A DNA stretch of 64,000 bases, from NCBI GenBank assembly GCA_000091205.1, contig AP006490.2; one strand, 5' to 3'. Positions 1 through 62,120 of this stretch are shown here, in pieces. Below the pieces are notes generated by a model that ran no database searches, was not told where the DNA came from, and saw only the letters and a list, made by a program, of their open reading frames with translations. This stretch comes from Cyanidioschyzon merolae. Taxonomy: Eukaryota. A program made the position numbers and the translations under genes. Numbering within the stretch: the stretch's first letter is position 1; the number at the start of each line of letters is the position of its first letter.

Positions 1-786
1 ATGATGGACCAGGAGACATGGTTGCCTCCGCGCCTTCGATCGCCGAACATGGGCCTTCGTTTCCACACCCGCGATCTTGCAACCTATGGCGATGAGGCAG
101 CGGAGGATGCACGGGCACTGGCTTCAGCATCATCAGCAGCACATGGTAGCTCGAAAGCGCAGCTACCTCCGGCGTACGTGCTGTCCACAAGCGCACCAGC
201 ATTCGCTCTGCACGAGCGTGCCGGTGACGAGGCGGCTTCGCTGCCTGCTGCAGCCTCCGATGCCACCGCCAGGGAGCAGCGCACGCGCAGACTCGCACGA
301 CCCCGCCAGGACAGCTCCATGATGCAATCGCTCAGTGCGACACTGGAGCAGGCGCTGCAAACCGTCCAAGATTGTCAGCGAATGGAGCGCACGCCCCAGC
401 AGTCGAACGCTCAATGCTCCATCGCCTCCGGTGCGAGCCGCACATTCGTCGAGGGCAATCCAATGCTTGCCAGTTCGCCTGGTATGCTGGCAGACATTGC
501 TGCATGCACATCGAGCGCGCTGTACGATGCCGCATGGAATCCATTCGCCATTGAGGAGGCGGTAGAGCCCACGAACGCCTACATGTTGGGTGACGCTTCA
601 TCCAACATGCCGCACGATCCTGAGATTCCCGAAGACGATGCAGATATCGTGCCACCCGCTGTACCAAAGGCACCGACCACGGCTCTGGACTCAGGCGCTG
701 TGGCTGCGGCGAGCGCACCAGAGCCGGGCGGTTTAGCGAGCAATGTCCGAATATGGCCGTTTGCGGGCCAAGGACGCGGCCACTAA
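1..786 (+). CDS. hypothetical protein, 5'-partial at window edge (may be spurious)
   Basis: Open frame from position 1; Ala/Ser-rich, no recognisable motif; overlaps stop of convergent UTP25 gene by 3 bp. Confidence 0.2.
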   Translation: MMDQETWLPPRLRSPNMGLRFHTRDLATYGDEAAEDARALASASSAAHGSSKAQLPPAYVLSTSAPAFALHERAGDEAASLPAAASDATAREQRTRRLARPRQDSSMMQSLSATLEQALQTVQDCQRMERTPQQSNAQCSIASGASRTFVEGNPMLASSPGMLADIAACTSSALYDAAWNPFAIEEAVEPTNAYMLGDASSNMPHDPEIPEDDADIVPPAVPKAPTTALDSGAVAAASAPEPGGLASNVRIWPFAGQGRGH

Positions 787-2966
787 TCGCAAACGCGTGC
801 ACCGAAAGAAACTGGTGCCGGAAACTCGAACTCGCGACGCAGTTGATTCGCGGTGATGTATGCCATGCGCTGTGATCCGACAATGCGGTGCAACGCCAGG
901 GCATCATCTGGCATGATGAACAGCGTGCATGCTTGTCGGAAACTCGACCCAGAGGCTTCTAAACTCGCAACGAGCTCGGTGTAGAACTGGGGGAATTGAG
1001 GAACTCCGTAGAAGAAGATGTACTGGGAGCCTCGAAGATGATAGCGGCGATAGAAATGGAAACGCTCGGTAACGAGGAGGAAGCGTACGCGCCCTTCGAA
1101 GAAAAGCAGGCGATAGCGACTGATATCCTGAGGTTTGCTGTACTCGGAGCAGGCTGCGAAACTGAGTTTCGAGGCCGGGTAGACCGCTTGCTCTGTCCAT
1201 TTGCGGAAGAGGTTGCGCACCCGCACAAAATCGAAATACGAGGGAATGTAGATTAGAATGTGCGTGTGCGTACTCTGGACAAGTTTCGGTAACCAGTCGT
1301 GGGAAAACGCAGCAAATCGCAGCTCTGCCGCCTCCACCGCCGAAAGTGTGTTCGTTGCAGCGCCTTCGCGTCCCGACCCGGTGCCGTGCGGTGTCGCGAG
1401 CCGGCGGAACACATGACGGACTCGTCTGGGTGCTGGAATATCCGCGATCACCCCAGCGTGCCGTGTTCGAAGTAGTTTTAGCACGCCACTTACATTACCT
1501 TGGTGATCTCTTCGCGCTAGACGGAACCATGCATGGCATTCGGGAAAATCAAATGCCGACAAGAGAATATCCTGGCGGTAGGCCGCAGCGTGGTCTTCAA
1601 GAAAGCGCTGCTCCACTCGTGAAAAGTCTGTCTTTTGCGGCACCTGAGCCGGCATTCTGTTCACGGCCTCTCGCACAACGCGCAGCAAATGGTCCCAGTT
1701 CTGCATGAGCATCATATGCGACCGTAAAATCACCGCGATTTCAATACTGGAAAGTGGATCTGCTGCACCGCCTCGCATGCCGCCCTTGTCGGGATCGTCG
1801 AGCACACGCTGGAGGCCCAGCGGGGACACAACCACAAAGTCAGAGTCCGCGAAATCCGCGAAAAAGTGGAGGGATCGGCGCTCAACGCGAACCCCCAGAC
1901 GAAAGTCATCATCGATATTGCCTTTGAATGCGGCTCGGTGGTCGCGAGGTTTTGCACGCCAATGTCGAGCGCGGCTGGTATCTGCACCTGGATCAGGCAC
2001 CGGTTCCGTAGGCGGCACCAGTAAAGTGTTCGGCTCTTCGGAGACAGTCCCATCGTCTGCGTCGGGTCCGAATGCTCCCTCAAAGCGCTGCGCGTGCCCG
2101 ATCTGCCGTGGGTTCAGGTATCTGAGCACCGCAGACAGGAACGCATACGCTACCTGCCGGGTTGGCGCAAAGACAAGCACTCGAGCGCGACTGAGGCCCC
2201 GGTCACGGTACTGATCCCAGTCGTCGTCGACGACAGACGCACCCGGCCGCTGTGCCAGCTGCACATTGTGCTGCTCCTGTCGCGCCTGTGCCTGCAGAAT
2301 GTGCGCACAAGTGTAGGCCGCAACGATCTCCAGGTGAAGCTGCTCCTCGTCAACGGAATCGATACAAGCAAGCAGAACATCGGCCTTGGTAACGAGAGCT
2401 CGAGCGAAGCACAGACCGCGCTGCAGGAGCAGGTCGCGCTCTCCGTAACGAAAAGGCGCCGAGGCGGCAACGTCCCCGGCACTAGGATCCACCAGTGCCG
2501 CGAGGCGCCGCTGGAGCATGGGCGTAGCCGCCACCAGGTCTGGTATGGAGCATAGTCGACGCTGCGCCTCTTCATAACGTTTTCTGGTGACGTGTCCTTT
2601 CACAGCGGACGCAAAAATGTCCGGTGCATCCCAGGAACGGGCGTGCGCTCCAGTGACTGGCTCCGTGTCCATGCAGTTCGCCTCGCAGCGTTGCCACGTA
2701 AGGGCATCTTCCGTGGCGTCCGCCGCCGTGGGGCTCAAGCTCAGGTGCTCGCGTAGCATCTGGACGCTCAGGTGCTCAGAGGCGCTCTCCGGTGCAGGTC
2801 GCTGGCAAGTCTGGCGATCGGAAACAGACGAGCCTACGGTGTTCGCCTTTGAGGTAACACCACCAGCTTTCGTTGCTGTTTCGAAGGTCAGGGAGTCAGC
2901 TTCGTCGGCGCCGCGCTGATCGCCTACCACGACAGACGCCCGACGCTTCCCCGCTTCGGCGCGCAT
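783..2966 (-). CDS. UTP25: Utp25/DEF-like nucleolar SSU-processome protein (DUF1253)
   Basis: 727-aa ORF with ATG at 2966; motifs 'ILIYIPSYFDFVRVRNLF' and 'LLFFEGRVRFLLVTERFHFYRRY...FFYGVPQFPQFY' typical of Utp25/digestive-organ-expansion-factor family. Confidence 0.6.
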   Translation of the reverse strand: MRAEAGKRRASVVVGDQRGADEADSLTFETATKAGGVTSKANTVGSSVSDRQTCQRPAPESASEHLSVQMLREHLSLSPTAADATEDALTWQRCEANCMDTEPVTGAHARSWDAPDIFASAVKGHVTRKRYEEAQRRLCSIPDLVAATPMLQRRLAALVDPSAGDVAASAPFRYGERDLLLQRGLCFARALVTKADVLLACIDSVDEEQLHLEIVAAYTCAHILQAQARQEQHNVQLAQRPGASVVDDDWDQYRDRGLSRARVLVFAPTRQVAYAFLSAVLRYLNPRQIGHAQRFEGAFGPDADDGTVSEEPNTLLVPPTEPVPDPGADTSRARHWRAKPRDHRAAFKGNIDDDFRLGVRVERRSLHFFADFADSDFVVVSPLGLQRVLDDPDKGGMRGGAADPLSSIEIAVILRSHMMLMQNWDHLLRVVREAVNRMPAQVPQKTDFSRVEQRFLEDHAAAYRQDILLSAFDFPECHAWFRLARRDHQGNVSGVLKLLRTRHAGVIADIPAPRRVRHVFRRLATPHGTGSGREGAATNTLSAVEAAELRFAAFSHDWLPKLVQSTHTHILIYIPSYFDFVRVRNLFRKWTEQAVYPASKLSFAACSEYSKPQDISRYRLLFFEGRVRFLLVTERFHFYRRYHLRGSQYIFFYGVPQFPQFYTELVASLEASGSSFRQACTLFIMPDDALALHRIVGSQRMAYITANQLRREFEFPAPVSFGARVCD

Positions 2967-3103
2967 GGCAGCAAGCGCCCAAAACTAGGCCCTCCTGATA
3001 CCAGGCGCCGCTCACTGGTCCGCAGCACTCCACGAGCAAGAGCTCTGAACGTCGTCTGTGAAACCGCTGCGGTACCAGAAACAACAGCTTCGTAAAATAC
3101 TGC

Positions 3104-3108
3104 TATTG

Positions 3109-3147
<39 letters not shown>
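3104..3147. repeat. (CTG)n microsatellite, about 14 units
   Basis: ctgctgctg... run seen directly upstream of UTP25 start. Confidence 0.9.
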
Positions 3148-3149
<2 letters not shown>

Positions 3150-3842
3150 GCCATCGATCCTGCGTTCGCGAATCGCCACCGAGACGCCGCTGCGGTGACG
3201 TCGGCGGAAGCGCGCTGTCGGCTGGGAGCGTCCACAGGGACACGCACCCGTATCGCCTGGATCGCTATTGGGGAGTGTGGGTCATGGAACTTGGAGATAG
3301 AATGTGGAACGATAGCTGCTTTACCAGTTTCTAATACCAAACGCGCCATCGGAAATCCCCTGGTCTACTTAAACGCTCTTTCTACAATGGAGCGGTGCAC
3401 AAGCATCGCCTGGATCTTTTGGAGCGGCGATTCACTCGCTGGAGACCGCCACCGCCGTCGCGCGCCGGCAGCGCAGGCGTCCCGCGACTCCCGAAACTGC
3501 CTCGTGCGCTACATATTCTTTTGACCAAACGCGGCACTGAACGTCGTTCGAAAGAGGCGTCCTGTTTGACCGCGAACGTCGGGTTCTTGCCAGAACTTTC
3601 TCCCACGCTTAGTAGAACCGCAAAACGCTGTATGAACGCGTTGGTTGCGGTGTGCAGCGAACGCAGCGAGCGAAACTGGCGAACGCTTCGTACGAACATA
3701 GCGCTGGAGCGGGGAGTGCGGGTCTCGAAACTGCCGCGTTACCGGTGGCGATGCGCATGGACTTGCACGTGAACTGCCTGCTTGGAGAATAGACTATCAA
3801 CTACGGCTCTGATAAGAGAGAATCCGTTTCGAGTTTCACGTC

Positions 3843-13713: not shown

Positions 13714-14134
13714 GTTAGACGTCCAGGTGCACGTTTGGAAAACTGCTATCGAGACTTGCGGAAACGCCTGCACCGCAGTAAGCAGCTCTGTTTTTCCTCG
13801 CAGAACGCGTAGCGTACAGCGCAAAGCGTCAGCGCGGCGGTGGATGCGGCGGTGGCGGTGGCGGTGGCGGGCGCCCCGCCAGTGTGTGTGTGTGTGTTTG
13901 TGGGTGCTACCTGGGAGCCGAGTCCTAGTGTTGACTCCCGGGCATCGCTGTGACGATGTTTACCATGAAGGTTGTGATTCCTGGAATATCTATAACAGGG
14001 CTGGTGCTTGCCTCCGATAGTTTTTTCTCGATGGTATGCCCTCAAAGGAGCATATCGTGTAGACTGGGGTACCGCCATGGGGAAGCTGGATGCTAGAGCT
14101 GCTCTCTAGAATAAACCGAACTATTTTTTGATTT

Positions 14135-14548
14135 TTGTTGTGCATACGCGAGAAGCGTGCATTTGGGCACCTGTTCATGGAGTTGGAAAAGGAAACGACA
14201 GATACGTTGCGTCGCTTGGTGGTAGCGTATGGCGCTGGATTGCTAACGATCGGGAACAATTGCAGCACACCTGCACCGTTGACGTGCGTGTCCAATGCGT
14301 GCAAGCATCGATGCTGCACGATTCCCATCGATGTGTTCAGAATGCTATACAAGTATCACAAGCAACATTGCACGCTGAAACAGGTGGACCATACCTGCGT
14401 GAAACAGAGCTGGATGCACGGAATGGAGTGCGGCAAGCGGAGCGAACGTCAGACGGCGAGGCAGTGGAAGGTGACCGGCATTCTACGCTGCGATTCTCTG
14501 ACACCTAGTGCATGGTATCACTGTCTGCTCCGAAACTTGACCCTATAA
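14135..14548 (+). pseudogene. relic fragment of Fanzor/TnpB-like nuclease gene (RuvC-II to zinc-finger region)
   Basis: 'RRLVVAYGAGLLT...TPAPLT...CKHRCCTIPIDVF...YKYHKQHCTLKQVDHTCVKQ...KVTGILR' is co-linear with copy A 'QRLVVAYGAGRWK...TPAPTT...CARRFVTIPVHEF...YTHHELGCTLQRVEMEKCQR...KVRGLLA'; lacks RuvC-III motif; about 45% identity. Confidence 0.45.
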
Positions 14549-14969
14549 GATCAACGTCCGGTAATATCTTGTGTTTTCAGAGCGTCCAGCGGCTTTACGT
14601 CGAGCGCGCTTACCAGGGAATATGGGAGTACTCAGTATAGGCAGTGGTGTGAAGCGCGGAAGACTTGTGACTAAAAAATCAATGTGCTGGAGAAAGTGAT
14701 TGGAAACTCGTCTAGTGCGAGACACTGGTATCAGGTGGTTCAACAATCAAGCCCGAAAAACTGAAGCGCCGTCGATGCATACTCGGAACCATTTTCCTGC
14801 GCAACTGGTGTACCACACCATCGTGATCCATCATGATTCGATAGATACCAGGGAAAAGGCCTTGTGTACGTTGGGCACGTTCGCGTTTTGCTGCTGAACC
14901 GTGTGTGGGGCTCGTTGGTCTCGTAGGGAACCGGAGGATGGACGCGGGGAGCAGGTCGGTTTCCAAGAG

Positions 14970-18272: not shown

Positions 18273-19384
18273 GCACGAGAGCCAAAAACCCCTGCCGCAT
18301 CACAGGGAGAAGCGCAGTCAACGCATTGTTGAACGTGCTCGCTGGCTGGGCGTGCTGTCGCCGCAGGACGCCGCCGCAGGAGCGCCAGCGCTCTGAACGC
18401 TGCCCGCAGGCCCTGCGGATACCCGGCACGCTTCTGGTGTGTATCGGGCAAAACAGGACGCTGAAACAGACCACAAACCGTTGCAAGGAACCGCAGCTGC
18501 AATGACGGAGACGACCTACGCGAGTCGAGTGTCCGGTGGAGGCGAGCTCATCCAGAAAAAAAAGCGTCTGCATGCGCAGTTGCTTCGATGCGGCGAGCTG
18601 TTCAACGAGTCCTAGGCGGAAACGCGTCTGTTGTCGTCGTTGCTGCATCCATGAAGTGCGATACCAGTATTGTCGTGGAAGCTGCACCCGCACACTGACT
18701 CCATGCATGCGCTTTGCGTTCACGAAACACGCTCGGGGAGCGGGTTGCGGCGGTGAACACGAATCGAAGGGACGTTGGTCATGTGCAAGTGGTACTGAGC
18801 AGCACAGGCGTCGCTACTTTGGTGCACGAGCGCGAGTGTCCAGATCGGATAGCGTTCCCGCGGACGTAGCGGGCAGCAGTGCGTATCGCGCTACCCACAA
18901 GTGCGTCGACGAGGTACCCGAAGGCGAGCAGCATGCCGTCGAGGTGCGCCCTAGGAGCAAGTGTACTCGCGCGCGCTCTCTCTCTCGCTCTCAAGTCGCA
19001 GGCAATGGATCCAGGAACGTGCGCTAGTCCGCGTATCTCTGCCGGCTCTGTTGACAGCATCGATTGTATACACCAGGATACGATTGGTTGCTTCGCTAAA
19101 CAAACTTTCAAAACAATGGAACACTGGCGCAGGCGTCAGGGCGTCGCGCACTGCAGCATAAGGGAAGAGTGCTTTTGGAGTCACTGCTGCAACATATGGA
19201 AATAAGGACTCCAGGTCGACTCGCGTAGCATGGCTGCGGTAAGGCCTGCCGCCCGCCATGCGCCTCTTCTGCCTCGTACGCAGCGGCGTTCGGACGCCGA
19301 ATTCTCGCGTCCAGTTCTTTTTTTCAGATTCCAAAACGTTTACATTGACCATGCGTCCCAGAATTCGCAATGGATAATGGCGCT

Positions 19385-19590
19385 CGGGAAAGCGTCCATC
19401 ATGAAGCACCAGCCTTCAAGTTCCATTACCCATACTTCCTCTCGGATAGACTGGTCGTTACGTATATTCTATCGTGTGCCGAGTGTCTGCCTCGAGCACC
19501 CGCCATAGCGCTTATATACCGCTGAAGCAGGTGCTGCACGGAGACAGAACGGCGCTGCCGTACCAGTCAGGGCGTCGGCTCGAGGCGTGA
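19385..19590 (+). repeat. about 200-bp dispersed repeat R2, copy a
   Basis: about 85% identical to 24205-24400 ('atacttcctctcggatagactggtcgt...ctatcgtgtgccgag...gctgcacggagacagaacggcgctgccgtacca...gggcgtcggctcgaggcgtg'). Confidence 0.5.
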
Positions 19591-19999
19591 TTCATCCGAC
19601 GCGGGGTCCGGGAACATAACCATTCTAGGAGCCTGCGACAGTGCGAACCGATCTACTAGGAGTCCACTGCGACCAGGGCGACGCCCGGATGCAGCTTTAC
19701 TGCGTCTATTCCCAGAATGAAATGCGTTGTAGAGGAGCTGCGCACGTCTCGCCACAGCACCTGCCACAGAGATAAGCATGAAGCACTAGCTAGCCCTGCA
19801 GACTCGTCCGGCTCGCGGGACCTTCCGCCGAGAAGGTAAACCTTCGAAGATACGGAAGCTTTTCCCCTATCAACGCTTATCATACAGGTCGAACGAAACT
19901 GTTATCGAGTTGCTAGTCAGTGGTTAGATTCTGTTCTTTCTTCCCCAGGAGAGTGCTCGCAGCTCAGGGGCAGGCACCCTCGCATCCACTGCTGCTGCA

Positions 20000-24204: not shown

Positions 24205-24400
24205 AGTATCCATCAAACCCCTACCTCCAATTTACATTTCCTATACTTCATCTCGGATATTCTGGTCATCTCACAAGTCCTATCGTGTGCCGAGCCTGCC
24301 GAAAGAGACCGCAATGGCGCGTGTAGCATCGGTGCGGTCGCTGCACGGAGACAGGACGGCGTTGCCGTACCACACAGAGGGCGTCGACTTGAGGCGTGGT
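24205..24400 (+). repeat. about 200-bp dispersed repeat R2, copy b
   Basis: see 19385-19590. Confidence 0.5.
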
Positions 24401-26189
24401 ATCGAGAGTGTCCCTGTTGTCTCGTCTTCTGGGGTCACCAGTATCATCCACTACGCAGGGATACCGTCGATGCCAGGTGTTTTGCGGTTGCTTGAGCATA
24501 GCACGGTCCGAACAGATTCAGGCCAGAAGATTGGGTCGTTCCATTCCGGTACCGGGTCGAGGCGCGGTAGTTGTGCAGCATATCGGTGCCAATAGATTCT
24601 GTCCTGGCAGTGCCCAGTTGCGTCTTCATGCAGCTCTGTCCAGTGGTCTGTGCAGGCCTCATTCACTGAGGCACTCTCCGTCCTCAGCGCCTCCTTTTAA
24701 CAGTTGGTGTGAGCCCCAGGCACTTTTTTGGTGGGTCCAGTCTCGATCGAATATAGCGCCAGGTCTCATTCTCGTTGGTGCTCTCTAGCATAGATTTCGC
24801 CAGGGAGGCGATTTTGCGGTTTCGATCCTCTCGTTTGTCTTCTCTGGGAAGTTTCTTCTTTCTTTTGATAGCATCCTCATGTTCCGCCTGTAGCGCCGGT
24901 AGCGCTGCCTTCGGTTCCTCTTCTCCGGCGTTGGCATGTATGGCGGTGCGGTTGACGATCTTGTTGAGTCGGTGGCATTCATCATTCCGAGTTTTGGTAC
25001 GTCGTTTCAAGAACTGAGGTTTGCAACTGTTGTGTTCTGGTCCAAGCAGTCCCAGCTCTCTGGCAATCTTCTGATTCCCATCTACAAACTCGCGTCCTAG
25101 TTGGTCTCAAAATCTGCATGCACGGCTTTTCGGATCTACAGCGCTGTGAGTAAGTGACTGGGTTTGGCGACGGCTTTCTTGGGTTCCCGCTGGGGCACTC
25201 TTTCAGGGGATCACTCATGATGGGTTCGTTCGGGAGTTCTTCTCTCTATTCTTCTGTTTTTTCTTGTTGGTCTTCTTCTTCTTCGGGCTCTTTCCTGAGC
25301 TGCTTTCTCTGGATATTTTGCATCTAGGTGGATCATGAGGTTTCTGTGCCTCCTTCTCCGTATCTGGTTGGGTCTCTTTACCTAACGCAGAGTCCTCCAC
25401 TTGTATCAGTTCTTCGTTACAGTACTGGTAATTCGATATCTCGTCGTCTAGTATCGAGGCTGTCCCACAAATATTCCATGATGCGAAACTTATCGAGTCG
25501 TGGCGCGTAAGGGAATAGGAGTAACGCTGCGGTGCTCCAGAGATACGTCGTCGATTTAGGTGCACCCTCGACGAGGTGTGTGAACGCACATGCCACAAGC
25601 GCCTCCCGCATTCCAGTCGTTCATTGAGTGCTTGGCGCAGCGCTAGCATAGAATCAGAAGTACTCTAGTCAAGGTCGATTCGAATGCGACCGTTACGCTG
25701 CCGGACGCGTGAAGCTACCCGCAACCACAGGGGATACTCTATGAACCACCCTTTCAGCAGCTTCGTGTCCGCTCCCCAAATACATAGGCGGGCAAGTCGC
25801 TTATTCCAGCTTCGACCGCGAACATGCTGCCAGCCGTCTTCCAAAATATCCGCCGAGATTGTTTCCAAAGTTGAGGTAGGTACCCATGGTAGGTGGTAAA
25901 ACGGAGCCCGAGTTCGAGGATGGATCTAGGATTTGCGCCCGAACCTGCAGCGTTATTTCGAGAGCAGCGGATAACTACTCAGAATTCTCGTCAATATTTT
26001 CTGCTGCTACTGCCTCCGCCCCTCCGTTCGTTGCGGTCAAGGTCCGTGTCGTGGGCTCCCTTCGTTGTCGCACGAACACCACGGTTTAACCCACTTTCAG
26101 AGCTTCTGCGGAAAAACTGGACCCCTTAGGCGGGCGTGATGTGTAGAGCTTTAAGATAGTTGGTCTTTAATAAATAGTTTGCGACTAGT

Positions 26190-28950
26190 TTGCATTGCGC
26201 TCGGTGAGCACGCCTGGGAGATCCGGCAGGCATGAGACACGACGCACATGTTGCCGTTGAAGGGGAACGTGATCCTGATCTCTAGCATGTAGATCTAATG
26301 TAAAAGTTGTAATTTCTTTAACTTCATAGCCAAGTACAGTTTTTCAGTTCATTTTTGTTTCAAACCTCAAGTAAAAATATTCAATTGATTTTTAGCAGTA
26401 TATAATAGAAGCGTTCAAAGAGCGTCCTTTTTCACAAAACAAAAAAGGAAAGTCATGAAAAAGCAAGTTCACGATTCTAGAGGCCCAGGGTCGCCGGCTG
26501 CCAGAAAAAAACAAAAAACAGTGCCGAGTCCAGAAGAAAAGGAAGAGAAGAAGGACCGAAAGGGGAGGTCGTACGTCGAAGGCGGCAAGATAGACGGCTG
26601 TACGACGAGATGGTGGTGAAAACCTTTCTTCTTGGACATATCAAGGATCCCTACAGAGAAAAGTTGCGAGACGCTATCAAAAAACGTGTCGACTCATACT
26701 CCAAGAGTATTGTCAAGGCGTCGTCAGGACTGATGCATTTGGCGAGGGAGATGTATCGCGACGTGACGGACATGGAAACGGTCGAGATTCCAGACGAGTT
26801 CTTCGACAAGACCTTTATTCGTCAGCTGATGCTTGGTACAGAGGAAACGCGGAAGGAAAATGAGCGGGTTCACGCTCTTCACGAAAACTTCGCGGAATTC
26901 CGCTTCGAGAGTAATCGATACAGAGGTGATCGGGATATTTAGACATACGGAGCGAAAACGCACATCACGAGTCTGAAGTACCATTTGACAGTGAACCTCG
27001 AACGTTTCATGATACGCGCCGTGGTTGCACTCTACCCGGGCATCTCTCGCAAAGGAATATGGGCGATTATCAATGGCATCACGAAAGATCGTAAGCATGA
27101 AGATGAGATCGAATGCGTCGACAAGCAGGCGTCAAACGAGGGCACGAATGAGGATTCTGTAATCCGTGCGGCTAAACAAGAGCATCGTGCGGTACTGGGG
27201 CTGGCGAATCCAACAGACAAGATATCGGAGTTGAAAAAAGAAAGATATTATCGCCTCGTCCTGCTCTATTTCGTGTTTCTGGACCGAGAGCTCGAACGCA
27301 AAGCAGAGATGAAGCTGAGCGAAGAGATAAATGAAGAGTGGGAGAGACGGAAGGCTGTCCTAATGGGGAAGCGCTTCAACGTGGTTCCAATGTCAAATAT
27401 CAAGTCACATTTTGTGACGATCGACTCCAGAGTCCTTTATGGCATCATGAAGGAGATCAGTCCGGAGTTCGATGTTAGCAGGGAGGAGTTCACCAGCGGA
27501 AACCGGCAGACATGCTGGAAGAGTATCTTCGATTTCAAACGTCTCAAAGTCAGCAAACGAAAGGTATTCACTGGGATGATCGAGACCGATGGAGTAGCCT
27601 TGTGTGTACACTATCGGCGATTGAAGAAAGATCGTCCAGTTCCGCCCTCGGCTGCGCCTGTGACGAAGGATGCAGAAAACAAAGAGGAAGATCCTGCGAC
27701 GCAGGAGGTGGAGGATAACGACATTGTCGTTGACGTGACGAAGGATGAAGATGAGAAGGTGACGGATCCTGCGACACAGGAGGTGCAAGATAACGACCAT
27801 GTCGTTGATGCGGCGAAGCATGAAGATGAGAAGGAGGAGGATACCGCGACGCAGAAAGTGCAGGATAACGACTTTGTCGTTGACGTGGCGCAGCATGAAG
27901 ATGAGAAGGAGGCGGATCCTGCGGTGCAGAAAGTGCAAGATAACGGCTTTGTTGCTGGCGCGGACCCCGGGAATACGAATATCATCACCATCGCAGCACC
28001 GAGGCGTGCGGAAGATGGTACTGACGGTTCCTTGCGTCAGAAAGACTTGCGTCTTTTGAGGTTCTCGAGAGCAAGATACTATCGAGAATCGGGAATCATG
28101 AATGCGAGGAAGAAAATTCCTGCATGGAATGCAGGAATGAAGGATCACCTGGAAGCTTTGAGCGAGGTGACGAGCCGAGGAGCAGACTTTCAAGCTTTTC
28201 GGAAATTCATGGAAGTTCGCATTGCGCGTTGGCATGCACTGTGGGAGGAGTATACCAAGCCTCTGTGGGCTCGTCTGCGAATGAGTCTATACGGCGGGAG
28301 GCAGCGCGCGCTCGCGAACTTTTTCAATGAGTTGAGCGCACTCAAAGAGGATGAGAGTCAGAGGCTCGTAGTAGCATACGGAGCAGGGCGCTGGAAGACC
28401 CAAAAAGGGACTACGCCAGCTCCAACGACAAGAACTTACAAGGAGTGTGCAAGGCGTTTTGTTACGATACCTGTACATGAGTTTCGAACGTCCTATACAC
28501 ACCATGAACTGGGGTGTACACTTCAGAGGGTCGAGATGGAAAAGTGCCAACGGGGTCCTGAGGAAATAGGAAAGCACGGAGAGGTGACTGAGCAGCAAAT
28601 GGAAAGGAGGGCGAAAGTGCGAGGGCTACTTGCATTAGCAAATACAACCACTGATGGCAAGGAACGTATGGAGTTTGTGAATCGTGACCTTAATGCCGCT
28701 ATCAATATAAGGTGATGTGCGGTGCTCGAGAGCAGATCTCCAGAGTCGACAAAAGAAAACGTTATTGGCCAGCCTCTAAAAGTTGAACTATATGAGAAAC
28801 AATTGGAAGCAGTGGCAGGTGGCCGCTCCAAAAAGACTGGCAGCCATCAGCACGTCAGTTGGAGATGTCTAGCCTAGGGCGCGGTTGCCGCCACTACTGT
28901 ACCACAGGCAGCAACGTTTTTCTTTTGAAAGACGTTTGTTTCCAGGGGTA
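26190..28950 (+). mobile_element. Fanzor/TnpB-like (IS605 OrfB-type) element, copy A, about 2.75 kb
   Basis: Left end defined by alignment with copy D ('GCATYGCGCTCGGTGAGC...ATGAGACACGACGC...'), right end by shared '...GCAGCAACGTTTTTCTTTTGAAAG...'; AT-rich 5' leader; single nuclease ORF; lower GC than flanks. Confidence 0.6.
26610..28715 (+). pseudogene. Fanzor/TnpB-like RuvC nuclease gene, copy A (one in-frame stop at about 26943, N-terminal ATG lost)
   Basis: RuvC-I '[16 protein letters not shown]'; 'QRLVVAYGAGRWK'; degenerate Zn finger 'CARRFVTIPVHEFRTSYTHHELGCTLQ...EKCQ'; RuvC-III 'ERMEFVNRDLNAAINIR'; four about 23-aa acidic tandem repeats before RuvC-I. Confidence 0.6.
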
Positions 28951-31003: not shown

Positions 31004-31448
31004 GATGGAGTTGCGAAGCGGGCTGCAGCACATTTTGAGCAGCGCTCCAGAGAAGCTACGCTGGCGGTGGCACGCTTACCACGAATGCAGCGCAGAACGG
31101 TAATTGATGCGGGAAGCACGACGCTGTGAAGCTTTGTGTTGCATGATGCGGCATGTATCCGGGGCTTTGGTTGTGAGGAAAATGCGGGTTCAGGCGCTCT
31201 TGAGGCGTTGACAGTGCAAAGCATGTTCATTCGAGGTACATTGTCCGTGCGATATGGTTGCGGGCTCGCACATCTGGAGGAGGACTCTACGGGACTCGAG
31301 CTATCGGTGATGCAAGACCCGGGGGTACGAAAGCTAGCTGGCTAGCTAGCTGGCTGAGCGCCGAGGCCCCCTGCAGGACAACCTGGTGCATATTTGTGCA
31401 AGTCCTCGCAAATCGCTCGACAAGACATGCGGCCTCGTGTCTGGAACT

Positions 31449-32236
31449 GCACGCGTATCAGATGCCGCGGGAATACCAGACCGCTGGCTCTATTCCTGCT
31501 TTGCGATCTTTTCGGAGCCTGTTCAGACTTATTGTCTCTATTTTCAAATTTAAGCGATAAGGGCTTACGGATTCAGATGCAGTTCTAGGATGCTGTGTCG
31601 TCGTTTCGGAGACGTTCGTTCGAGTCTCTCTGCCACTGCAACTCGTTACGTCAGTGGAATCAAGATGCTACGCGGCATTCCGGAATGTGCGTTCGTAAAA
31701 TAACCGACAGCATGATGCCGTGCATGTGAGCAAGCTTCCGTGCTTCTTGTTGCTCCATGAAACACCGCCATGAACTCGTTCACATGGGTCATCGCAGCGA
31801 TAACTTCCAGCAGGGCGTGCGTCGACGTTTTGCATGAAGCGACCAGAGACGCATCGAAGTTTCGTGACGTGGTATCCAGCGTGGATTCCCATTCCTCTAC
31901 CAGTTCTATCATGGGCAACGTCGAGTTTCACAAATCCTCGGTCGAATTGAATGGAGCGTGCTTGCGCGTGCAGCTGGCACAGTGCTCGCCGAACAGATCG
32001 CCCAGAGGCGTCCCGTGATCACGGGGTACTCCAGCGGGCGCGGCAACGGAGCGGGGGCATCCACGGAATCCTTCCGTGCTCGTCGAGGGCATGGATCGAC
32101 TGTTAGCACAGGCGTTCATGTGTCACAGGGCGGTGTTCAGAAGAGGAGATGCGGCGAACGCGTGAGAACACCAGACCCCAGTCAAGCGCTGCGGATGCAT
32201 ATGGCGCACTGAGGCCGTCTACAACGAGAAATACAT
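31449..32236 (+). repeat. about 790-bp dispersed repeat R1, copy 1
   Basis: Near-identical (a handful of mismatches) to 48079-48856, same orientation, offset 16630 bp; ORF track shows identical short ORFs in both copies. Confidence 0.8.
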
Positions 32237-44495: not shown

Positions 44496-45482
44496 GTGGT
44501 CGTTTTTCTGCGGCAGTGAACACGTTGCCTAGTCTTCCGGAAAGTCTGAAGCCAACTGGAAAACGCTGCGTTGCTGCACTACTGCAGCGAGTCCTGTTTG
44601 AGAGCACGGGCCTGTGCTGGGTGTTGTTGTGGCTGCGCAAGGTGTCAGTGCCGGGTGTTGTTGTGTGATGCTTTCCGCGAAGAGGCGATGCAGAGCGCTG
44701 TAACTTGGGCTATTATGAGTCCAGAACCAGGGTCGTCACGCTAGAGCTTTCTTTGGAACAAGTCAGTTCCAAGATTGTACAGTATGATGTGCGGAACAGC
44801 GCTGCTGCGCGCGTTGTAACCTGTTCAACTTCTTTTCCAGAAACGCAGTGTTGAACGTGCGTGAAGAGTTTTGGGCTTCGATGAGCCTTGCTTGCGCTGC
44901 ACTAGTTCTGGTGCTACGATTGAAACCGGACCGGGTACAATACTCTATGCCAAAGGCGGCTCGGAACCGAGACTTGACCACAGCATAGCGAGCCCTCGAG
45001 GCCTTTTGCGGGTACGCGCTTGCCGCTTCTTGCGGACCGGGCCAACGCAACGCTTGCACGTGCAAACGTACCGTTGTGTTTCGTGACGTGACGTCGTCGC
45101 AGGAAAGAAACTCGAATCCCAGACTCGGGTGCGTACCGTTTCGGCGATATGGATACGAGGGCGTGTAGTCTTTCAACCCGAGTGCGATTCACCCCCAGGT
45201 GCATGATTTCAAATGCTTTTTCGCGGTTTATAGCAGATGCGTTCCAAGTGCGTGCATTTTGAAGAAATAATTATCTAATGAAAAGGCATGGAGATGGAAG
45301 GCGGGGGATCCTAGAGGGCCGGTGTCATCGGGGGCCGGAAAAGTAACGAAAAGAAATCCACTTCTCGCCGGCCAACGAGCGACAAAGAGCAAGGAATGAA
45401 GAAGAAGAAAGAGAAGCGGCGCGAGAGACGGGAATGTATTGGTACACAGGGCACGAGGTCCCGGCATCCTTGTAATGGTGCG

Positions 45483-45700
45483 TTCCATCAGCGGCAAGAA
45501 ACGGATGGAGTTCGTGAACCAAGACTTCAACGCAGTCATCAAAATCAGACGGTGTGCAGTGCTGAAGAGAAGAGACTCGAGGAACTGACGCAATCCAATT
45601 TTGCGGGGTTACCTTTCAGAGTCGAAGTGTACAACGAGAAACTCAAGCCGATAGCAGCCGGCCGGTCAAACAAGACTGGGAGGCGTCTGCGGGTGCGTAT
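45483..45700 (+). mobile_element. 3'-terminal fragment of Fanzor/TnpB-like element
   Basis: Encodes '...GKKRMEFVNQDFNAVIKIRRCAVL...RVEVYNEKLKPIAAGRSNKTGRRLRV' matching the C-terminus and downstream conserved region ('GCCGGTC.AAA..GGGAGGCGTCTGC') of copies A-D. Confidence 0.5.
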
Positions 45701-47908: not shown

Positions 47909-48078
47909 CAGTTCTAGTTGGCTACAAAGGATATTACGGCTTAACGGAATCCATGGTTAACGCGGCTATCATGGTGTTCCGGAAGGTCGGCTCCGATCCA
48001 GAGCCGCAACCCGCGATCTGGACGGCGCGATTTGATCCGTTTTGTTCGCCGATCGTTGCGCGATCGTCAACGGTATCT

Positions 48079-48856
48079 GCACGCGTTTCAGATGCCGCGG
48101 GAATACCAGACCGCTGGCTCTATTCCGGCTTTGCGATCTTTTCGGAGCCTGTTCAGACTTATTGTCTCTATTTTCAAATTTAAGCGATAAGGGCTTACGG
48201 ATTCAGATGCAGTTCTAGGATGCTGTGTCGTCGTTTCGGAGACGTTCGTTCGAGTCTCTCTGCCACTGCAACTCGTTACGTCAGTGGAATCAAGATGCTA
48301 CGCGGCATTCCGGAATGTGCGTTCGTAAAATAACCGACAGCATGATGCCGTGCATGTGAGCAAGCTTCCGTGCTTCTTGTTGCTCCATGAAACACCGCCA
48401 TGAACTCGTTCACATGGGTCATCGCAGCGATAACTTCCAGCAGGGCGTGCGTCGACGTTTTGCATGAAGCGACCAGAGACGCATCGAAGTTTCGTGACGT
48501 GGTATCCAGCGTGGATTCCCATTCCTCTACCAGTTCTATCATGGGCAACGTCGAGTTTCACAAATCCTCGGTCGAATTGAATGGAGCGTGCTTGCGCGTG
48601 CAGCTGGCACAGTGCTCGCCGAACAGATCGCCCAGAGGCGTCCCGTGATCACGGGGTACTCCAGCGGGCGCGGCAACGGAGCGGGGGCATCCACGGAATC
48701 CTTCCGTGCCCGTCGAGGGCATGGATCGACTGTTAGCACAGGCGTTCATGTGTCACAGGGCGGTGTTCAGAAGAGGAGATGCGGCGAACGCGTGATGACA
48801 CCAGACCCCAGTCAAGCGCTGCGGATGCATATGGCGCACTGAGGCCGTCTACAACG
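48079..48856 (+). repeat. about 790-bp dispersed repeat R1, copy 2
   Basis: see 31449-32236. Confidence 0.8.
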
Positions 48857-49842
48857 GAGATGAATACAGCAGGCGTGGCGTGGATCGCAACTTGCTGCTT
48901 TGCACGAAATGCGTGAAAAATCACCCAAAGCAGCGGAATCGGGATTTGGACCATGCCATCGACACGCTGCGACTGTTGACATCGGAGCTGGAGGGTGGGG
49001 AGAGATCGGTGTATTTAAAGGCAGGGGAAAAGAGAAACAGAAAACAGGGGTCTCAGAACAGGCGCACAAAGGCTGATATTGATGGCCTCGCGAAGACGAG
49101 ACACAACCTTAGTCGTACACAACCGAGTCAGAGGGTACGACCCTTTCTATTTCATCCTGCTATGTACATAGAACAGTGTCGATTCTTCAGCACCAGACCT
49201 GAATAGATTCGATTTAGCGTTGAGCGCGTCTAGTGACGGGCAACGCCTACCGTCCACGACACCAAGATTGCGTTTTACGATCTGGGACAGAGGTCCTGCG
49301 GACTAGACACGTCCGCAGGGCTCGTGCTGTGTGCGCCACCACGGCAGCGACTGCAGAGGCGGTGCAGGCGCAGTCCCAATGCAGCGCATCTCAGTCAGGC
49401 TGACCCCGCTGGAACGAGGGAGAGTGGCGTCTCCATCGTCGCCGGGATTTCTCCAGCATACCGCTCCGTGCAGCCAGCACGAGATCTGCATGCACCAACG
49501 GTTTGGTCCTAGGAAGAAGTCGAATTCTGCCCTTGAATGGTATCACTCACTCCAGAATCCGAAGGCTGCGATGTTTCGCAAAGCCGCAGTATCACCAGGG
49601 TATGACCGCGACGACGCGTAGCGTAGCGCAGCGAGCGCGCACGGCAGGCTCCTGTTCAAGGAGGCTGCAGGGTCCAGCGTACATATTCTCCTCAGAAACA
49701 CTGCTCTACGGTTGAAGTAAGCAGAAACGTATTTGCAGCGATAAAATCTCTTCCAAATTCACCAGCAGCGTCTACGTACCTCAAAGAATCCGGTTCAAAA
49801 TATCCATCTCATTGCTTGATAACATTCAAACGAAACTTTTTG

Positions 49843-55353: not shown

Positions 55354-55422
55354 GGTACAGGCATAGGTACAGGCATAGGTACAGGCATAGGTACAGGCAT
55401 AGGTACAGGCATAGGTACAGGT
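55354..55422. repeat. 12-bp tandem repeat (GGTACAGGCATA) x about 5.7
   Basis: Direct observation; right palindrome arm has only about 1.5 units (59098-59122, inverted). Confidence 0.9.
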
Positions 55423-55914: not shown

Positions 55915-56019
55915 ATCACAATTTATAATGCTTTCGTAAACTCGAAAAATGCATATGCAAATGAGGTACCACGGCGCGCGCGGTGGCCGCACAGCCACAA
56001 ACACAGGAGATTTTACCGC

Positions 56020-57366
56020 AACAGGACCCGCACGCACCGCAGTTTGAAAGTCGAACGACGGCGGTGTACAGTAGCGGCGAACGATGCGCCCTAGACGACG
56101 TCTCCAACTGAGGTGCAGACGCCTCCCGGCCTTTTTGGACCGGCCACCCGCTACTGCTTCCAACTTTTTCTCAAATAATTCCACTTTGGGAGGTTGTCCA
56201 ATAACGTTCTCTCGTGGCAACTCTGGAGGTCTGCTCTCGAGCACCGCACATGTCGTTATCTTGATAGCGGCGTTAAAGTCTCGGTTCACAAACTCCATAC
56301 GTTCCGTGCCATCATTGGTTGTACTTACTAATGCAAGCAGTCCCCGAACTTTCGCCCTCCTTTCCATTTGCGCTTCCGTCAGCGGTCCGTACTTTGCTAT
56401 TCCCTCAGGGCTGCTCCGACACTTTTCTATCTCGACACTTTGAAGTGTACACCCCAGTTCATGGTGTGTATACGATGTTCGGAACTCATCTATCGATATC
56501 GTAACAAAACGTCGTGCACACTCTATGTACGTTCTCGTCGTTAGAGCTGGTGTACACCTTTTTTGGGTCTTCCAGCGCCCTGATCCGTACGCTACTACCA
56601 GCCTTTGGCTCTCGTCCTCCTTCAGGGCGTTCAACTCATTGAAAAAGTTCGCGAGCACGCGCTGCCTCCCACCGTATAGACTCATTCGCAGACGAGCCCA
56701 CCGGGGCTTTGTATACTCCTCCCGTAGCGCCTCCCGATGAGGAACACGAACTTCCATGACTTTCCGAGAAGCTTGAAAGTGTGCTCCGCGGCCCGTCACC
56801 TCGCTCAAAGCTTCCAGGTGATCCTTCATTCCTGCATCCCATGCAGGAATTTTCTTCCTCGCATTCATGACTCCCGATTCTCGATAGTATCTTGCTCTCG
56901 GGAACCTCAAAAGACGCATGTCTTTCTGACGCAAGGAACCGTCAGTACTATCTTCCGCACGCTACGCTGCGCGATGGTTATGATACTCGTATTCTCAGGG
57001 TCCGCGCCAACGACAAAGCCGTTATCTTGCACTTTCTGCACCGCAGGATCCGCCTCCTTCTCATCTTCATGCTGCACCACGTCAACGACAAAGTCGTTAT
57101 CCTGCACTTTCTGCGTCGCGGTACCCGCCTCCTTCTCATCTTCTTGCTGCGCCACGTCAACGACAAAGTAGTTATCCTGCACTTCCTGTGTGGCAGGATC
57201 CGCCTCTTTGTTTTCTGCATCCTTCGTCACGGGCGGAGCCGAGGGCGGAACTGGCCGATCTGTCTTCAACCGCCGATAGTGTACACACAAGGCTACTCCA
57301 TCGGTTTCGATCATCCCAGTGAACAACTTTTGTTTGCTGACTTTGAGCCGTTCGAAACTGAAGATA
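56020..57366 (-). pseudogene. Fanzor/TnpB-like nuclease element, copy B (5'-truncated; 3' boundary approximate)
   Basis: Encodes from '[22 protein letters not shown]' through RuvC-I 'VVGADPENTSIITIA', 'LVVAYGSGRWK', Zn finger and 'FVNRDFNAAIKI'; no stop before downstream LEA-like ORF. Confidence 0.55.
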
Positions 57367-58570
57367 TTCTTCGTTGGGATGATCGAAACCGATGGAGCAG
57401 CCTTGTGTGTACACTATCGGCGGTTTCAGGCGGATCATCCAGCTCCGTCTTCGACTTCGCCGGGACGGAGCATGAAGCGAAGAAAGAGGCGGATCGTGCC
57501 ACGCAGAAAGTGCAGGATAAAGAATTTCCCATTGACGCTACGAAGCATGAAGATGAGATGGAGGCGGATACCGCGACGCAGGAGATGCAGGATAACGACT
57601 TTGTCGTTGGCGCGGACCCTTGGAACACGAATATCATTGGCATGGCTGTACCCAAGCGTGCGGAAGATGGTATCAACGACAGCCCATTTCAGAGAGACAT
57701 GCGTCTGTTGAGATTCTCGAGAGCAAGATACTACCTAGAATTGGGAATCATGAATGCAAGGAAGGAAATTGAGGCATGGAATGCGGAAGTGAAAGAGCAT
57801 CAGGAAGCTTTGAGCGAGGTGACAAGCCGAGGAGCGGGCTTTCAAGCTTTTCTGAAATTCATGGAAGTTCGCATTGCGCACTGGGATGCATTGTGGGAGG
57901 AGTATACAAAGCCCCGGTGGGCTCGTTTGCAAATGAATCTATACGTTGGGAAGCAGCGGGCCTTCGCGAGTTTTTTCAATCAGTTGAGTGCCCTGAAGGA
58001 GGATGAAAATCAGAGGCTCGTAGTAGCGTATAGAGCAGGGCGCTGGGCGCCCAAGAAAGGCACTACGCCAGCTCCAACGACGGGGGCGTACAAGGAGTGC
58101 GCACGGCGTTTCGTCGCGATACCGATAGATGAGTTCCGTTCGTCCTATACACTCCATGAACTGGGGTGTACACTTCAGAGAGTGGAGATGGAAAAGTGCC
58201 AACGGAGCCCTGAGGAAATAGCAAAGTACGGACCTCTGACGGAAGAGCAAATGGAAAGGAGGGCGAAACTTCGGGGGCTACTTGCATTAGTAAGTACAAC
58301 CAGTGATGGCAAGGAACGTATGGAGTTTTTAAACCGAGACTTTAACGTCGCTATCAATTTAAGGAGATGTGCGGTGCTGGAGACGAGACCTCCAGAGCTG
58401 ACAAGAGAGAACTTTGTTGGACAACCGCCCAAAGTAGAACTATATGAGAAAATATGGAATCAGTAGTAGGTGGCCGGTCCAAAAAGGCTGGGAGGCGTCT
58501 GCACGTCAGTGGGAGATGTTTCGTCTAGGGCGCGTGCTTCGCCACTATTGTACACCGTTGGCGTCGTTCG
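57366..58570 (+). pseudogene. Fanzor/TnpB-like nuclease element, copy C (5'-truncated; 3' boundary approximate)
   Basis: '[17 protein letters not shown]' ... 'VVGADPWNTNIIGMA' ... 'LVVAYRAGRWA' ... 'EFLNRDFNVAINLR'; stop at 58466. Confidence 0.55.
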
Positions 58571-59417: not shown

Positions 59418-62120
59418 GCATCGCGCTCGGTGAGCGTACCCGGGAGATCAGGCAGATATGAGACACGACGCGCATGTCGCCGCTGAAGGGAAACGCGATC
59501 CTGACCATTCGTTGACGTGTTGTTCTAACGTAAAACTTGTATTTGCATTGGAATCGTAACAGAATATATTGTTTCATCTCAGTCGTGTTTCAACCTTCAA
59601 GTAAAAATACTCGAGCGCTTTTTCGCGGTTTAGAGCAGAGACGTTAATAGTGCGTTCTAAATCAAAAAAAAAAAACTAAAAAAGGAAAGTTCTGGACAGC
59701 GAAGTGGAGGACCCTGGAGGGTCAGTATCGCTGGCAGGCGAGAAAAAAGGAGCAAAAGAGCCAAACATAGAAGAACGAGACAAGACGAAGAAGCAGACGG
59801 GGGAGGTCCTACGTCAATGGCTGCAAGAAAGACGACAGTACGACGAGATGGAGGTGAAAACCTGTCTTCTCGGCTATAGCAAGGATTCGTAGAAGAAAAA
59901 ATTGCGAGAGTCCATCAGAAACTGTGACGAGTCGGACTCCATGAGTTTTCGTAAGACTTCTTTAGGAATGATGCATCTAGCGAGGGAGATGTATCGCGAC
60001 GTGACGCACATGGAAACAGTCGATGTTCCAGAAAAATTTTGCAACAGGAACTTTATTCTTCACCTGATGCTTGGTACAGGGGAAACATCGAGGAGAAATG
60101 AGCGGGTTCACGCCCTCCACGAAAACTTCGCGGAATTCCGCTTCGAGGGTACTCGGTACAGAGGTGACTCGAATATTTACATATACGGGGCGATGAAGTA
60201 CCTCACGAATCTGAAGAACCATTTGACAGTGAACCTTGAACGTTTCATGAGACGCTCGGTGTTTGCACTCTACCGGGGCATCTCTCGCACAGGAATACGG
60301 GCGATTACCAATGGCATCACCAACGAGCACCAGAATGAAGATGAAGTCGAATTTGTCGACAAGAAGGCGTCAAACGAGCGCACGAATGAAGCCTCTGTAA
60401 TCCGTGCGGTTATACAAGAGCGCCGTGCAATCTTGGGGTTGGCGGATCCAATAGACAAGATACCAGAGTTGAAAAAAAATATAAGGAAAGACACTATCGC
60501 CTCATCCTGCGATATTTCGTGTTTTTGCACCGAGAGCCCGAACGCAGTGCGCAGATGAAGCCGAGTGAGGAAAAAATATGAAGAGTGGGAGAGACGGAAA
60601 GCTTTCCTAATGGGGAAGCGCTTCAACGTCGTTCCAATGTGCAGCATCAAGTCACATTTTGTGACTGTCGACCCAACGTACGTTACAGCAAATTGAAGGA
60701 GATCTGTCCGGAGTTCAATGTAAGGAAGACAGAGTTCGCCGGTGAAAACCGGGAGACGTACTGGAAGAACATCTTCAATTTCAAACGGCTCAAAGTCAGC
60801 AAACAAAAGTTGTTCACTGGGATGATCGAAACCGATGGAGTAGCCTTGTGTGTACACTATCGGCGGTTGAAGACAGATCGGCCAGTTCCGCCCTCGGCTC
60901 CGCCCGTGACGAAGGATGCAGAAAACAAAGAGGCGGATCCTGCCACACAGGAAGTGCAGGATAACGACCTTGTCTTGACGTGGAGCAGCATGAAGATGAG
61001 AAGGAGGCGGATACCGCGACGCAGAAAGTGCAGGATAACGACTTTGTCGTTGACGTGGTGCAGCATGAAGATGAGAAGGAGGCGGATCCTGCGGTGCAGA
61101 AAGTGCAAGATAACGGCTTTGTTGCTGGCGCGGACCCCGGGAATACGAATATCATCACCATCGCAGCACCGAGGCGTGCGGAAGATGGTACTGACGGTTC
61201 CTTGCGTCAGAAAGACATGGGTCTTTTGAGGTTCCGGAGAGCAAGATACTATCGAGAATCGGGAGTCATGAATGCGAGGAAGAAAATTCCTGCATGGGAT
61301 GCAGGAATGAAGGATCACCTGGAAGCTTTGAGCGAGGTGACGGGCCGCGGAGCACACTTTCAAGCTTCTCGGAAAGTCATGGAAGTTCGTGTTCCTCATC
61401 GGGAGGCGCTACGGGAGGAGTATACAAAGCCCCGGTGGGCTCGTCTGCGAATGAGTCTATACGGTGGGAGGCAGCGCGTGCTCGCGAACTTTTTCAATGA
61501 GTTGAACGCCCTGAAGGAGGACGAGAGCCAAAGGCTGGTAGTAGCGTACGGATCAGGGCGCTGGAAGACCCAAAAAAGGTGTACACCAGCTCTAACGACG
61601 AGAACGTACATAGAGTGTGCACGACGTTTTGTTACGATATCGATAGATGAGTTCCGAACATCGTATACACACCATGAACTGGGGTGTACACTTCAAAGTG
61701 TCGAGATAGAAAAGTGCCAGAGCAGCCCTGAGGGAATAGCAAAGTACGGACCGCTGACGGAAGCGCAAATGGAAAGGAGGGCGAAAGTTCGGGGACTGCT
61801 TGCATTAGTAAGTACAACCAATGATGGCACGGAACGTATGGAGTTTGTGAACCGAGACTTTAACGCCGCTATCAAGATAACGACATGTGCGGTGCTCGAG
61901 AGCAGACCTCCAGAGTTGCCACGAGAGAACGTTATTGGACAACCTCCCAAAGTGGAGTTATTTGAGAAAAAGTTGGAGGCAGTAGCGGGTGGCCGGTCCA
62001 AAAAGGCCGGGAGGCGTCTGCACCTCAGTTGGAGACGTCGTCTAGGGCGCATCGTTCGCCGCTACTGAACCACTGGCGGCAGCGTTTTTCTTTTGAAAAG
62101 CGTTTGCTGCTCGGGGTGCT
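59418..62120 (+). mobile_element. Fanzor/TnpB-like element, copy D, about 2.7 kb
   Basis: Both ends align with copy A; right end 12 bp upstream of the CysRS ATG. Confidence 0.6.
59704..62068 (+). pseudogene. Fanzor/TnpB-like RuvC nuclease gene, copy D (at least 3 frameshifts/stops; GTG at 59704 in ORF track)
   Basis: Fragments 59704-59892, 59902-60558, 60585-61229, 60980-62068 are co-linear with copy A; retains '[16 protein letters not shown]', 'LVVAYGSGRWK', 'FVNRDFNAAIKI'; 1-nt deletion near 60975 and homopolymer indel near 60480. Confidence 0.6.

Follow-up and report, generated by a model that had tools for sequence, protein, structure and literature searches.

Repeats in a 64-kb stretch of Cyanidioschyzon merolae DNA are very probably decayed copies of the known Fanzor1 element CMe-1

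In eukaryotes, Fanzors are the counterpart of the RNA-guided nucleases TnpB and Cas12, and they are in development as compact genome editors. Bao and Jurka defined Fanzor1 and Fanzor2 in 2013 (Mobile DNA 4:12; PMC3627910), and the CMe-1 protein was among the founding Fanzor1 sequences. They listed one Fanzor1 family for Cyanidioschyzon merolae, CMe-1A, with some 150 copies that each share about 80% identity with a consensus of 3169 bp. It encodes a protein of 734 amino acids (aa) in a single exon and has neither terminal inverted repeats (TIRs) nor a transposase; its target-site duplication was undetermined and its superfamily unassigned in that paper (PMC3627910). The first 635 bp of CMe-1A are 95% identical to the repeat TE-N2_CMe, which has about 70 copies. 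Some old CMe-1 copies with intact open reading frames (ORFs) were also reported (PMC3627910). Here we analyse a stretch of 64,000 nucleotides of C. merolae (contig AP006490.2), referred to as the window. An initial annotation, made from the letters alone, had described a TnpB/Fanzor-like family at six loci in it. These repeats are very probably decayed copies of CMe-1, a DNA transposon family that carries Fanzor1.

The characterised members of the group offer a frame for comparison. In Fanzor1 of Spizellomyces punctatus (SpuFz1), Saito et al. (2023) found the metal ligands D383, N385, E541, and D606, with E541 binding Mg2+ in cryo-EM (PMC10432273). SpuFz1 and TnpB share a CCCC zinc finger in the nuclease lobe (PMC10432273). 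Jiang et al. (2023) reported that the RuvC-II glutamate of Fanzor is replaced by glycine or proline. A conserved glutamate about 45 residues downstream serves in its place, and mutation of this residue abolishes Fanzor cleavage (PMC10530073). For both Fanzor and TnpB, the characterised guide RNAs are encoded where the ORF ends and at the element's right end (PMC10530073, PMC10432273).

We took the CMe-1A consensus from the supplement of PMC3627910 and aligned it to the window by blastn. The copies, of which the four large ones are called A to D, did align with it (Table 1). The organism and the protein are the same, the DNA is 84-88% identical over consensus positions 671-3169, and both lack TIRs and a transposase. 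Likewise, the published CMe-1 protein shares a string of 39 letters, and others, with the window protein. Because the consensus aligns and these strings are shared, the finding is a rediscovery of a family published in 2013. CMe-1 was among the first Fanzor1 families described, so no new kind of system is at hand. Two differences from the published description should be mentioned. The 5' part of CMe-1A, the 635 bp of TE-N2_CMe, is absent from A and D, which carry other upstream sequence. Strictly, judged by this alignment, A and D are CMe-1 cores and not members of the CMe-1A subfamily. At the other end, homology between copies extends about 15 nt beyond the published 3' end.

Direct searches for protein homology gave little. 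A Pfam scan of the window ORF had no match, and the NCBIfam model guided_TnpB (NF040570) gave it E = 0.14, at 11.4 bits against a cut-off of 100. The intact relative P0001 (752 aa) scored E = 0.23 with Pfam PF07282, below threshold. A profile of eight sequences found no match in the PDB, and the precomputed Pfam label was DUF8286 only. Close relatives from JGI metagenomes made up nearly all matches of a word-indexed protein search. Such null scans would fit a repeated ORF of other descent in which short motifs resemble TnpB/Fanzor by chance. However, the family profile, the consensus alignment, and the published sequence refute this explanation, and we give it practically no weight. When 1.84 billion representative proteins were searched exhaustively with a profile of seven sequences, 3307 relatives scored E <= 1e-3, and 434 of them reached E <= 1e-30. 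We aligned 112 diverse relatives from the exhaustive search (alignment A7) and ran their profile against the PDB. It matched exactly three distinct sequences, all of them Fanzor1: PpFz1 from Parasitella parasitica (PDB 9cf0, E = 7e-25), SpuFz1 (PDB 8gkh, E = 1e-18), and GtFz1 from Guillardia theta (PDB 9cer, E = 2e-12). The matches span REC, RuvC, and the C-terminal motif. By this homology, the window protein is a Fanzor1 and so a eukaryotic relative of the RNA-guided nucleases TnpB and Cas12. The motif-based call of the initial annotation was sound, and its TnpB/Fanzor kinship is borne out by both the consensus match and the three solved Fanzor1. The profile search that it had proposed was negative with the direct Pfam and NCBIfam models and positive with the 112-sequence profile.

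The RuvC motifs of copy A are listed in Table 1. Three columns are invariant in A7, and two of them are G623 (VVAYG) and E656 (DEFRTS), in the numbering of P0001. E656 sits 33 residues downstream of G623. The aspartates D484 (GxDPG) and D725 (NRDxNAAxNI) are conserved in at least 90% of the 112 sequences. The RuvC-I aspartate aligns with the IDP of SpuFz1. In SpuFz1, 65 residues separate the glutamate of LLDEYKTS from the aspartate of NRDM, matching E541-D606, and HMMER aligns these two residues to E656 and D725. The relocated-glutamate reading is supported because E656 and D725 align with E541 and D606 of the solved SpuFz1 structure. We predict that the RuvC active site of CMe-1 is composed of the GxDPG aspartate, the relocated DEFRTS glutamate, and the NRDxNAAINI aspartate. 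The RuvC-I, VVAYGAG, and NRDxNAAINI motifs first quoted are all present in copy A, and copy D has GADPGNT, VVAYGSG, DEFRTS, and NRDFNAAIKI. The Fanzor1 arrangement proposed at the outset also stands: an invariant glycine occupies the RuvC-II slot, and the DEFRTS glutamate takes the place of SpuFz1 E541.

To describe selection on the protein, we measured divergence from the consensus in 81 copies (the window and 80 metagenome loci). It was 0.120 at codon position 1, 0.097 at position 2, and 0.189 at position 3, with 0.184 in the 5' non-coding part. The contrast is sharpest in the RuvC half, where positions 1 and 2 show 0.06-0.09 and position 3 about 0.2. The lineages that these copies come from were under past purifying selection on the protein, in keeping with the old copies with intact ORFs noted in 2013.

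The zinc finger has another fate. In CMe-1, all four of its cysteines are replaced. The CxxC that follows the relocated glutamate in SpuFz1 becomes YTHH in copy A (the first CxxC of CMe-1 reads YTHH-EL), and the second pair is replaced too (RGLLALVSTT). The first CxxC is also missing in most of the 112 relatives. Judging from the alignment, the finger is lost in the CMe-1 clade, and the term "degenerate" given to it earlier has to be corrected: none of the four cysteines is left. The PF07282 (TNB) domain, which includes the CCCC zinc finger, is typical of the TnpB/Cas12f superfamily and does not define Fanzor1. Relatives that keep the cysteines pass its gathering threshold of 26.3 bits (P0186 with 32.9, P0213 and P0202 with 27.5 each).

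This loss bears on a second explanation, in which CMe-1 is genuinely related to Fanzor1 and has ceased to be a nuclease. It could be an RNA-guided DNA binder, have some other role, or belong to a family that is extinct in this genome. Nuclease-dead derivatives of TnpB and Cas12 exist as a precedent for a binder. The replacement of the four cysteines in CMe-1 and most of its clade agrees with it, as does the failure of CMe-1-type proteins at the TNB threshold that cysteine-bearing relatives pass. Every window copy is disrupted, and the overall selection on the protein is only moderate. Nevertheless, 112 diverse members show little or no variation at the three catalytic residues, and the constraint on positions 1 and 2 is strongest exactly over the RuvC region. 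Intact relatives of about 750 aa, such as P0001, are present in closely related strains, and the 2013 paper reports intact copies. We regard the loss of nuclease function as unlikely, though worth keeping in view.

A further feature of the protein stands directly upstream of the RuvC-I strand. It is a 25-aa unit rich in aspartate and glutamate, repeated in tandem, that matches repeatedly to consensus positions 2117-2196. The number of 75-nt units differs: one in the consensus, about four in A, three in B and D, two in C, and several in P0001.

Table 1. Features of the CMe-1 copies and related sequences in the window. Consensus positions refer to CMe-1A.
Feature	Coordinates	Strand	Consensus positions	Identity	Remarks
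Copy A, core-length CMe-1	26192..28949	+	~643-3169 + ~15 nt	85-88% (26220-28934 = 671-3169)	Pseudogene; blastn, three-frame translation
5' hairpin, copy A	26197..26211	+			GCGCTC-GGT-GAGC(A)C; read by eye, no statistic
75-nt (25-aa, acidic) tandem repeat, copy A	27690..27952	+			3.5 copies; Tandem Repeats Finder
RuvC-I GADPGNT, copy A	27957..27977	+			Predicted catalytic Asp = D484 of P0001, D383 of SpuFz1
VVAYGAG, canonical RuvC-II strand, copy A	28368..28388	+			Invariant Gly where TnpB has the catalytic Glu
HEFRTS (family: DEFRTS), copy A	28476..28493	+			Predicted relocated Glu = E656 of P0001, E541 of SpuFz1
RuvC-III NRDLNAAINI, copy A	28680..28709	+			Predicted catalytic Asp = D725 of P0001, D606 of SpuFz1
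3' terminal ~230 nt, copy A	28716..28949	+			Ancestral ORF tail + ~70 nt non-coding; candidate omega-RNA scaffold/right end
3' hairpin, copy A	28909..28938	+			GCAACGTTTTTC-TTTT-GAAAGACGTTTGT
Copy B, 5'-truncated	56061..57372	-	1976-3140	87%	98% identical to the 3' half of copy D
Copy C, 5'-truncated	57375..58563	+	2030-3145	87%	Head to head with B; 82% to B and D
Copy D, core-length CMe-1	59418..62117	+	~643-3169 + ~15 nt	84-87% (59446-62102 = 671-3169)	Several frameshifts
75-nt repeat, other copies	57002-57231, 57446-57615, 60905-61133				
Old internally deleted CMe-1 copy	45163..45690	+			Two pieces, given below
First piece	45163-45352		785-968	74-75%	
Second piece	45469-45690		2862-3084	74-75%	
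Relic of a second, distant Fanzor1 lineage	14132..14657	+			C-terminal ~175 aa; tblastn, translation
Solo TE-N2_CMe-like sequence	19332..19943	+	7-640	79%	
TE-N2_CMe fragment	24220-24400		84-262		

Copies A and D align with each other over ~2.7 kb at about 80-88% identity (blastn within the window). The Fanzor1 reading frame of copy A runs from 26610 to 28877 (+), about 755 codons from an internal methionine, with 76% aa identity to P0001. It is interrupted by in-frame stops at 26940-26942 and 28713-28715, and an N-terminal frameshift affects the first ~50 codons. Its longest open piece in the ORF listing is 26985-28715, of 576 aa. Copies B and C miss their 5' half. The window holds zero intact copies and none able to yield a full protein; possible RNA output aside, the copies are relics. 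Along copy A the GC content is 0.47-0.51, against 0.55-0.60 in most of the adjoining host-gene DNA. Several early remarks hold for the window: a lower GC than in host genes, this ORF only and no transposase, and every copy disrupted or truncated. Neither Rfam nor tRNA scans of the window gave a match.

All six loci were recovered, the four large ones by blastn and the two small ones by tblastn with P0001. The small fragments, at 45.5 and 14.1 kb, are present as described, although the second does not belong to CMe-1. At 45 kb, P0001 matches 45448-45573 with 60% aa identity (E = 1.2e-9). Since its two pieces match consensus positions 785-968 and 2862-3084, this locus is an old, internally deleted CMe-1 copy. 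At 14 kb, P0001 matches 14153-14512 with 36% aa identity (E = 1.5e-14). This relic belongs to a second Fanzor1 lineage because it matches the last ~175 aa of the distant members P0065 and P0048 (35-37% aa identity, tblastn). It keeps VVAYGAG, and its relocated glutamate is replaced (IDVFRML). C. merolae therefore once harboured at least one Fanzor1 lineage besides the one given in the 2013 paper.

Copies B and C lie in a large palindrome (55225-59249), head to head on opposite strands with 2 nt between them (57373-57374). The outer flanks of this palindrome are inverted repeats (55225-55829 and 58691-59249) with 85-92% identity. The 98% identity of B to D covers 56069-57372 against 62067-60764, whereas C has only 82% identity to either. 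The palindrome looks like an old inverted duplication, after which B and D recently underwent gene conversion.

The ends were aligned in the same 81 copies, with 43 5' junctions and 81 3' ends. The complete unit is a core of ~2.5-2.7 kb with one ORF and a hairpin close to each end. The core starts at consensus ~643-646 with the sequence ATCGCGCTCGGTGAGCGCACCTGGGAGATC, which includes the hairpin GCGCTC-GGT-GAGCGC. The consensus and three metagenome loci (L001-L003) have a different hairpin at the same place, GCGCG-GTCGATA-CGCGC. At least four distinct sequences, each common to several loci, precede the 5' core start, and TE-N2_CMe is one of them. No TIRs were seen in the aligned ends. A weak resemblance of ~14 nt between the 5' end and the reverse complement of the 3' end, found by eye in A and D, was rejected as a TIR. 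No TnpA was found in the element or in the window.

The 1.5 kb that precede copy A (24695-26194) recur, at 87-90% identity, in front of CMe-1 cores at L048/L049, L006, and L014. The downstream flanks differ in those that were read (L048, L006, and L014). L051 contains part of this sequence in inverted orientation. Either the element has here a long alternative 5' part, or the sequence is another repeat or conserved region beside which CMe-1 cores lie. Because it is 87-90% identical over 1.5 kb to four other loci, this upstream sequence, at least, seems to be a longer repeat or conserved region and not a short module.

At the 3' side, the ORF stop lies about 70 nt before the element end, and the hairpin is next. 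Its versions at this place include GCGTCGTTCGA-CTT-TCGAACGGCGT, CAACGTTTTTC-TTTT-GAAAGGCGTTTG, and GTTCTA-CTT-TAGAAC, and one copy has an unrelated perfect 12-bp palindrome there. The sequence GCGTTTGTTG follows the hairpin, and the copies diverge beyond it. The hairpin occurs in two registers and is not alignable by column, so each copy was folded separately. In 45 non-redundant copies, folded singly, the mean z was -1.86, with z < -1.5 in 62%. Three coding control segments gave mean z values of +0.39 to -0.39. The terminal region is conserved across these 45 copies. In the last ~185 nt of the ORF (consensus 2926-3110), divergence is 0.14-0.17 at position 3 and 0.11-0.13 at positions 1 and 2. 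With third positions hardly freer than the other two, the nucleotide sequence as such seems to be under constraint. Since the guide RNAs of characterised Fanzor and TnpB map to this part of their elements, we infer that the CMe-1 3' region encodes a guide-RNA scaffold.

The terminal hairpins could equally be read as DNA signals for a single-strand transposase. A third explanation has the core move as single-stranded DNA, like IS200/IS605, IS91, or Helitrons, with an HUH-type enzyme supplied from another locus. That enzyme would recognise the hairpins, which might or might not also be parts of a guide RNA. The absence of TIRs, the hairpin at each end, and a 3' hairpin kept through differing sequences are in line with this proposal. 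The same core stands behind at least four different repeated upstream sequences, as in rolling-circle elements that gain new 5' parts, and Chlamydomonas Helitrons carry Fanzor1 genes. However, this upstream variety may only reflect copies that lie inside other repeats, as the 1.5 kb of copy A at four loci illustrates. No HUH gene, nor a RepHel gene in particular, was found in the element or the window. Of the Helitron ends, the 5' TC and the 3' CTRR were not seen, and the 3' hairpin is present. Replitron-like HUH proteins were not detected in red algae (PMC10288648). Movement of this kind is doubtful on present evidence, but conceivable. A retrotransposon-like origin was considered as well, as fragments keep their 3' ends; the sample was too small, it had no other support, and we rejected it.

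The reading that we prefer is a Fanzor1 nuclease guided by RNA from its own element. A guide RNA would be transcribed from the last ~200-300 nt, overlapping the ORF end, into the flanking DNA. The Fanzor1 protein would bind this RNA from the element 3' end. The RNA would direct the nuclease to matching DNA beside a short motif, the match being the RNA part copied from the flank. Cutting may help the element to persist or spread. As the element lacks a transposase, its transposition would need an enzyme from another source.

Several results weigh against this reading. All window copies are broken. The CCCC finger of the nuclease lobe is gone, and because of this loss the nuclease activity of the clade is only putative. 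The guide RNA of CMe-1 is proposed by analogy, and RNAalifold over the last 320 nt gave no global consensus structure. The terminus alignment suggested in the initial annotation did find hairpins near both ends but no target-adjacent motif: in 43 copies, only a frequent GC was seen directly upstream of the 5' boundary. Finally, an AlphaFold2 model from 65 mostly close homologues had a predicted local distance difference test score (pLDDT) of 46.3 and a predicted template modelling score (pTM) of 0.24, too poor for a fold search.

A bolder proposal joins both activities. The ~2.5-kb core would move as its IS200/IS605 ancestors do, through single-stranded transfer by an enzyme not yet found. The Fanzor1 without its zinc finger, with RNA from the last ~250 nt, would be a working guide-directed nuclease. 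The combination is a long shot. If true, the large clade without CCCC would be an active and structurally distinct branch of Fanzor1.

Other observations place the window in its genome. Five long host ORFs correspond residue for residue to C. merolae 10D proteins (BAM79753, BAM79754, BAM79760, BAM79763, and BAM79767). Three metagenome contigs (L009, L033, and L044) cover the locus of the window with 98-99% identity, and the window host proteins also have JGI metagenome cluster members. A direct repeat of 792 nt (31447-32235 and 48077-48868) is 99% identical between its copies, which are 16.6 kb apart. It has a GC content of 0.55 and no long ORF, is unrelated to CMe-1, and was found elsewhere only in orthologous metagenome contigs.

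With respect to the 2013 description, the additions concern both ends and the protein. They are the hairpins near both ends without TIRs, the alternative repeated upstream sequences, the codon-position evidence for purifying selection, the nucleotide-level constraint at consensus 2926-3110, and the clade-wide loss of the zinc finger with the triad kept. CMe-1 belongs to a large clade in which the finger is lost and the catalytic triad retained. The terminal hairpins and the variable upstream sequences are leads on how CMe-1 moves. In the literature naming both Fanzor and Cyanidio*, we found no test of RNA-guided cleavage by CMe-1 or of its guide RNA. With its very small genome and its genetic tractability, C. 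merolae is suited to testing these questions.

Compared with the three solved Fanzor1, CMe-1 is homologous over the REC, WED, and RuvC regions. SpuFz1, PpFz1, and GtFz1 have in common with it the RuvC-I aspartate, the relocated glutamate in DE(F/Y)(R/K)T(S/T), and the NRD of RuvC-III. The match between them is detectable by the family profile only. They have been characterised biochemically and structurally, whereas CMe-1 is known from its sequence. A further difference is the acidic 25-aa tandem repeat that CMe-1 carries before RuvC-I. SpuFz1 keeps the CCCC zinc finger that CMe-1 has lost, and its element has inverted repeats of 30 nt, in contrast to none in CMe-1.

The prokaryotic TnpB of IS200/IS605 and IS607 (for example, ISDra2 TnpB) and Cas12f are more distant in organisation. 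TnpB has the canonical RuvC-II glutamate where CMe-1 has glycine and a relocated glutamate. The CMe-1 protein is almost twice as long, its host is a eukaryote, and it has no TnpA. Nevertheless, these proteins belong to the same superfamily, with the D..E..D chemistry of RuvC and a RuvC-III motif of the hADxNAAxNI type in common with CMe-1. Prokaryotic TnpB elements likewise have a single ORF, hairpin ends rather than inverted repeats, and a guide RNA at the 3' end, the place where that of CMe-1 would be expected.

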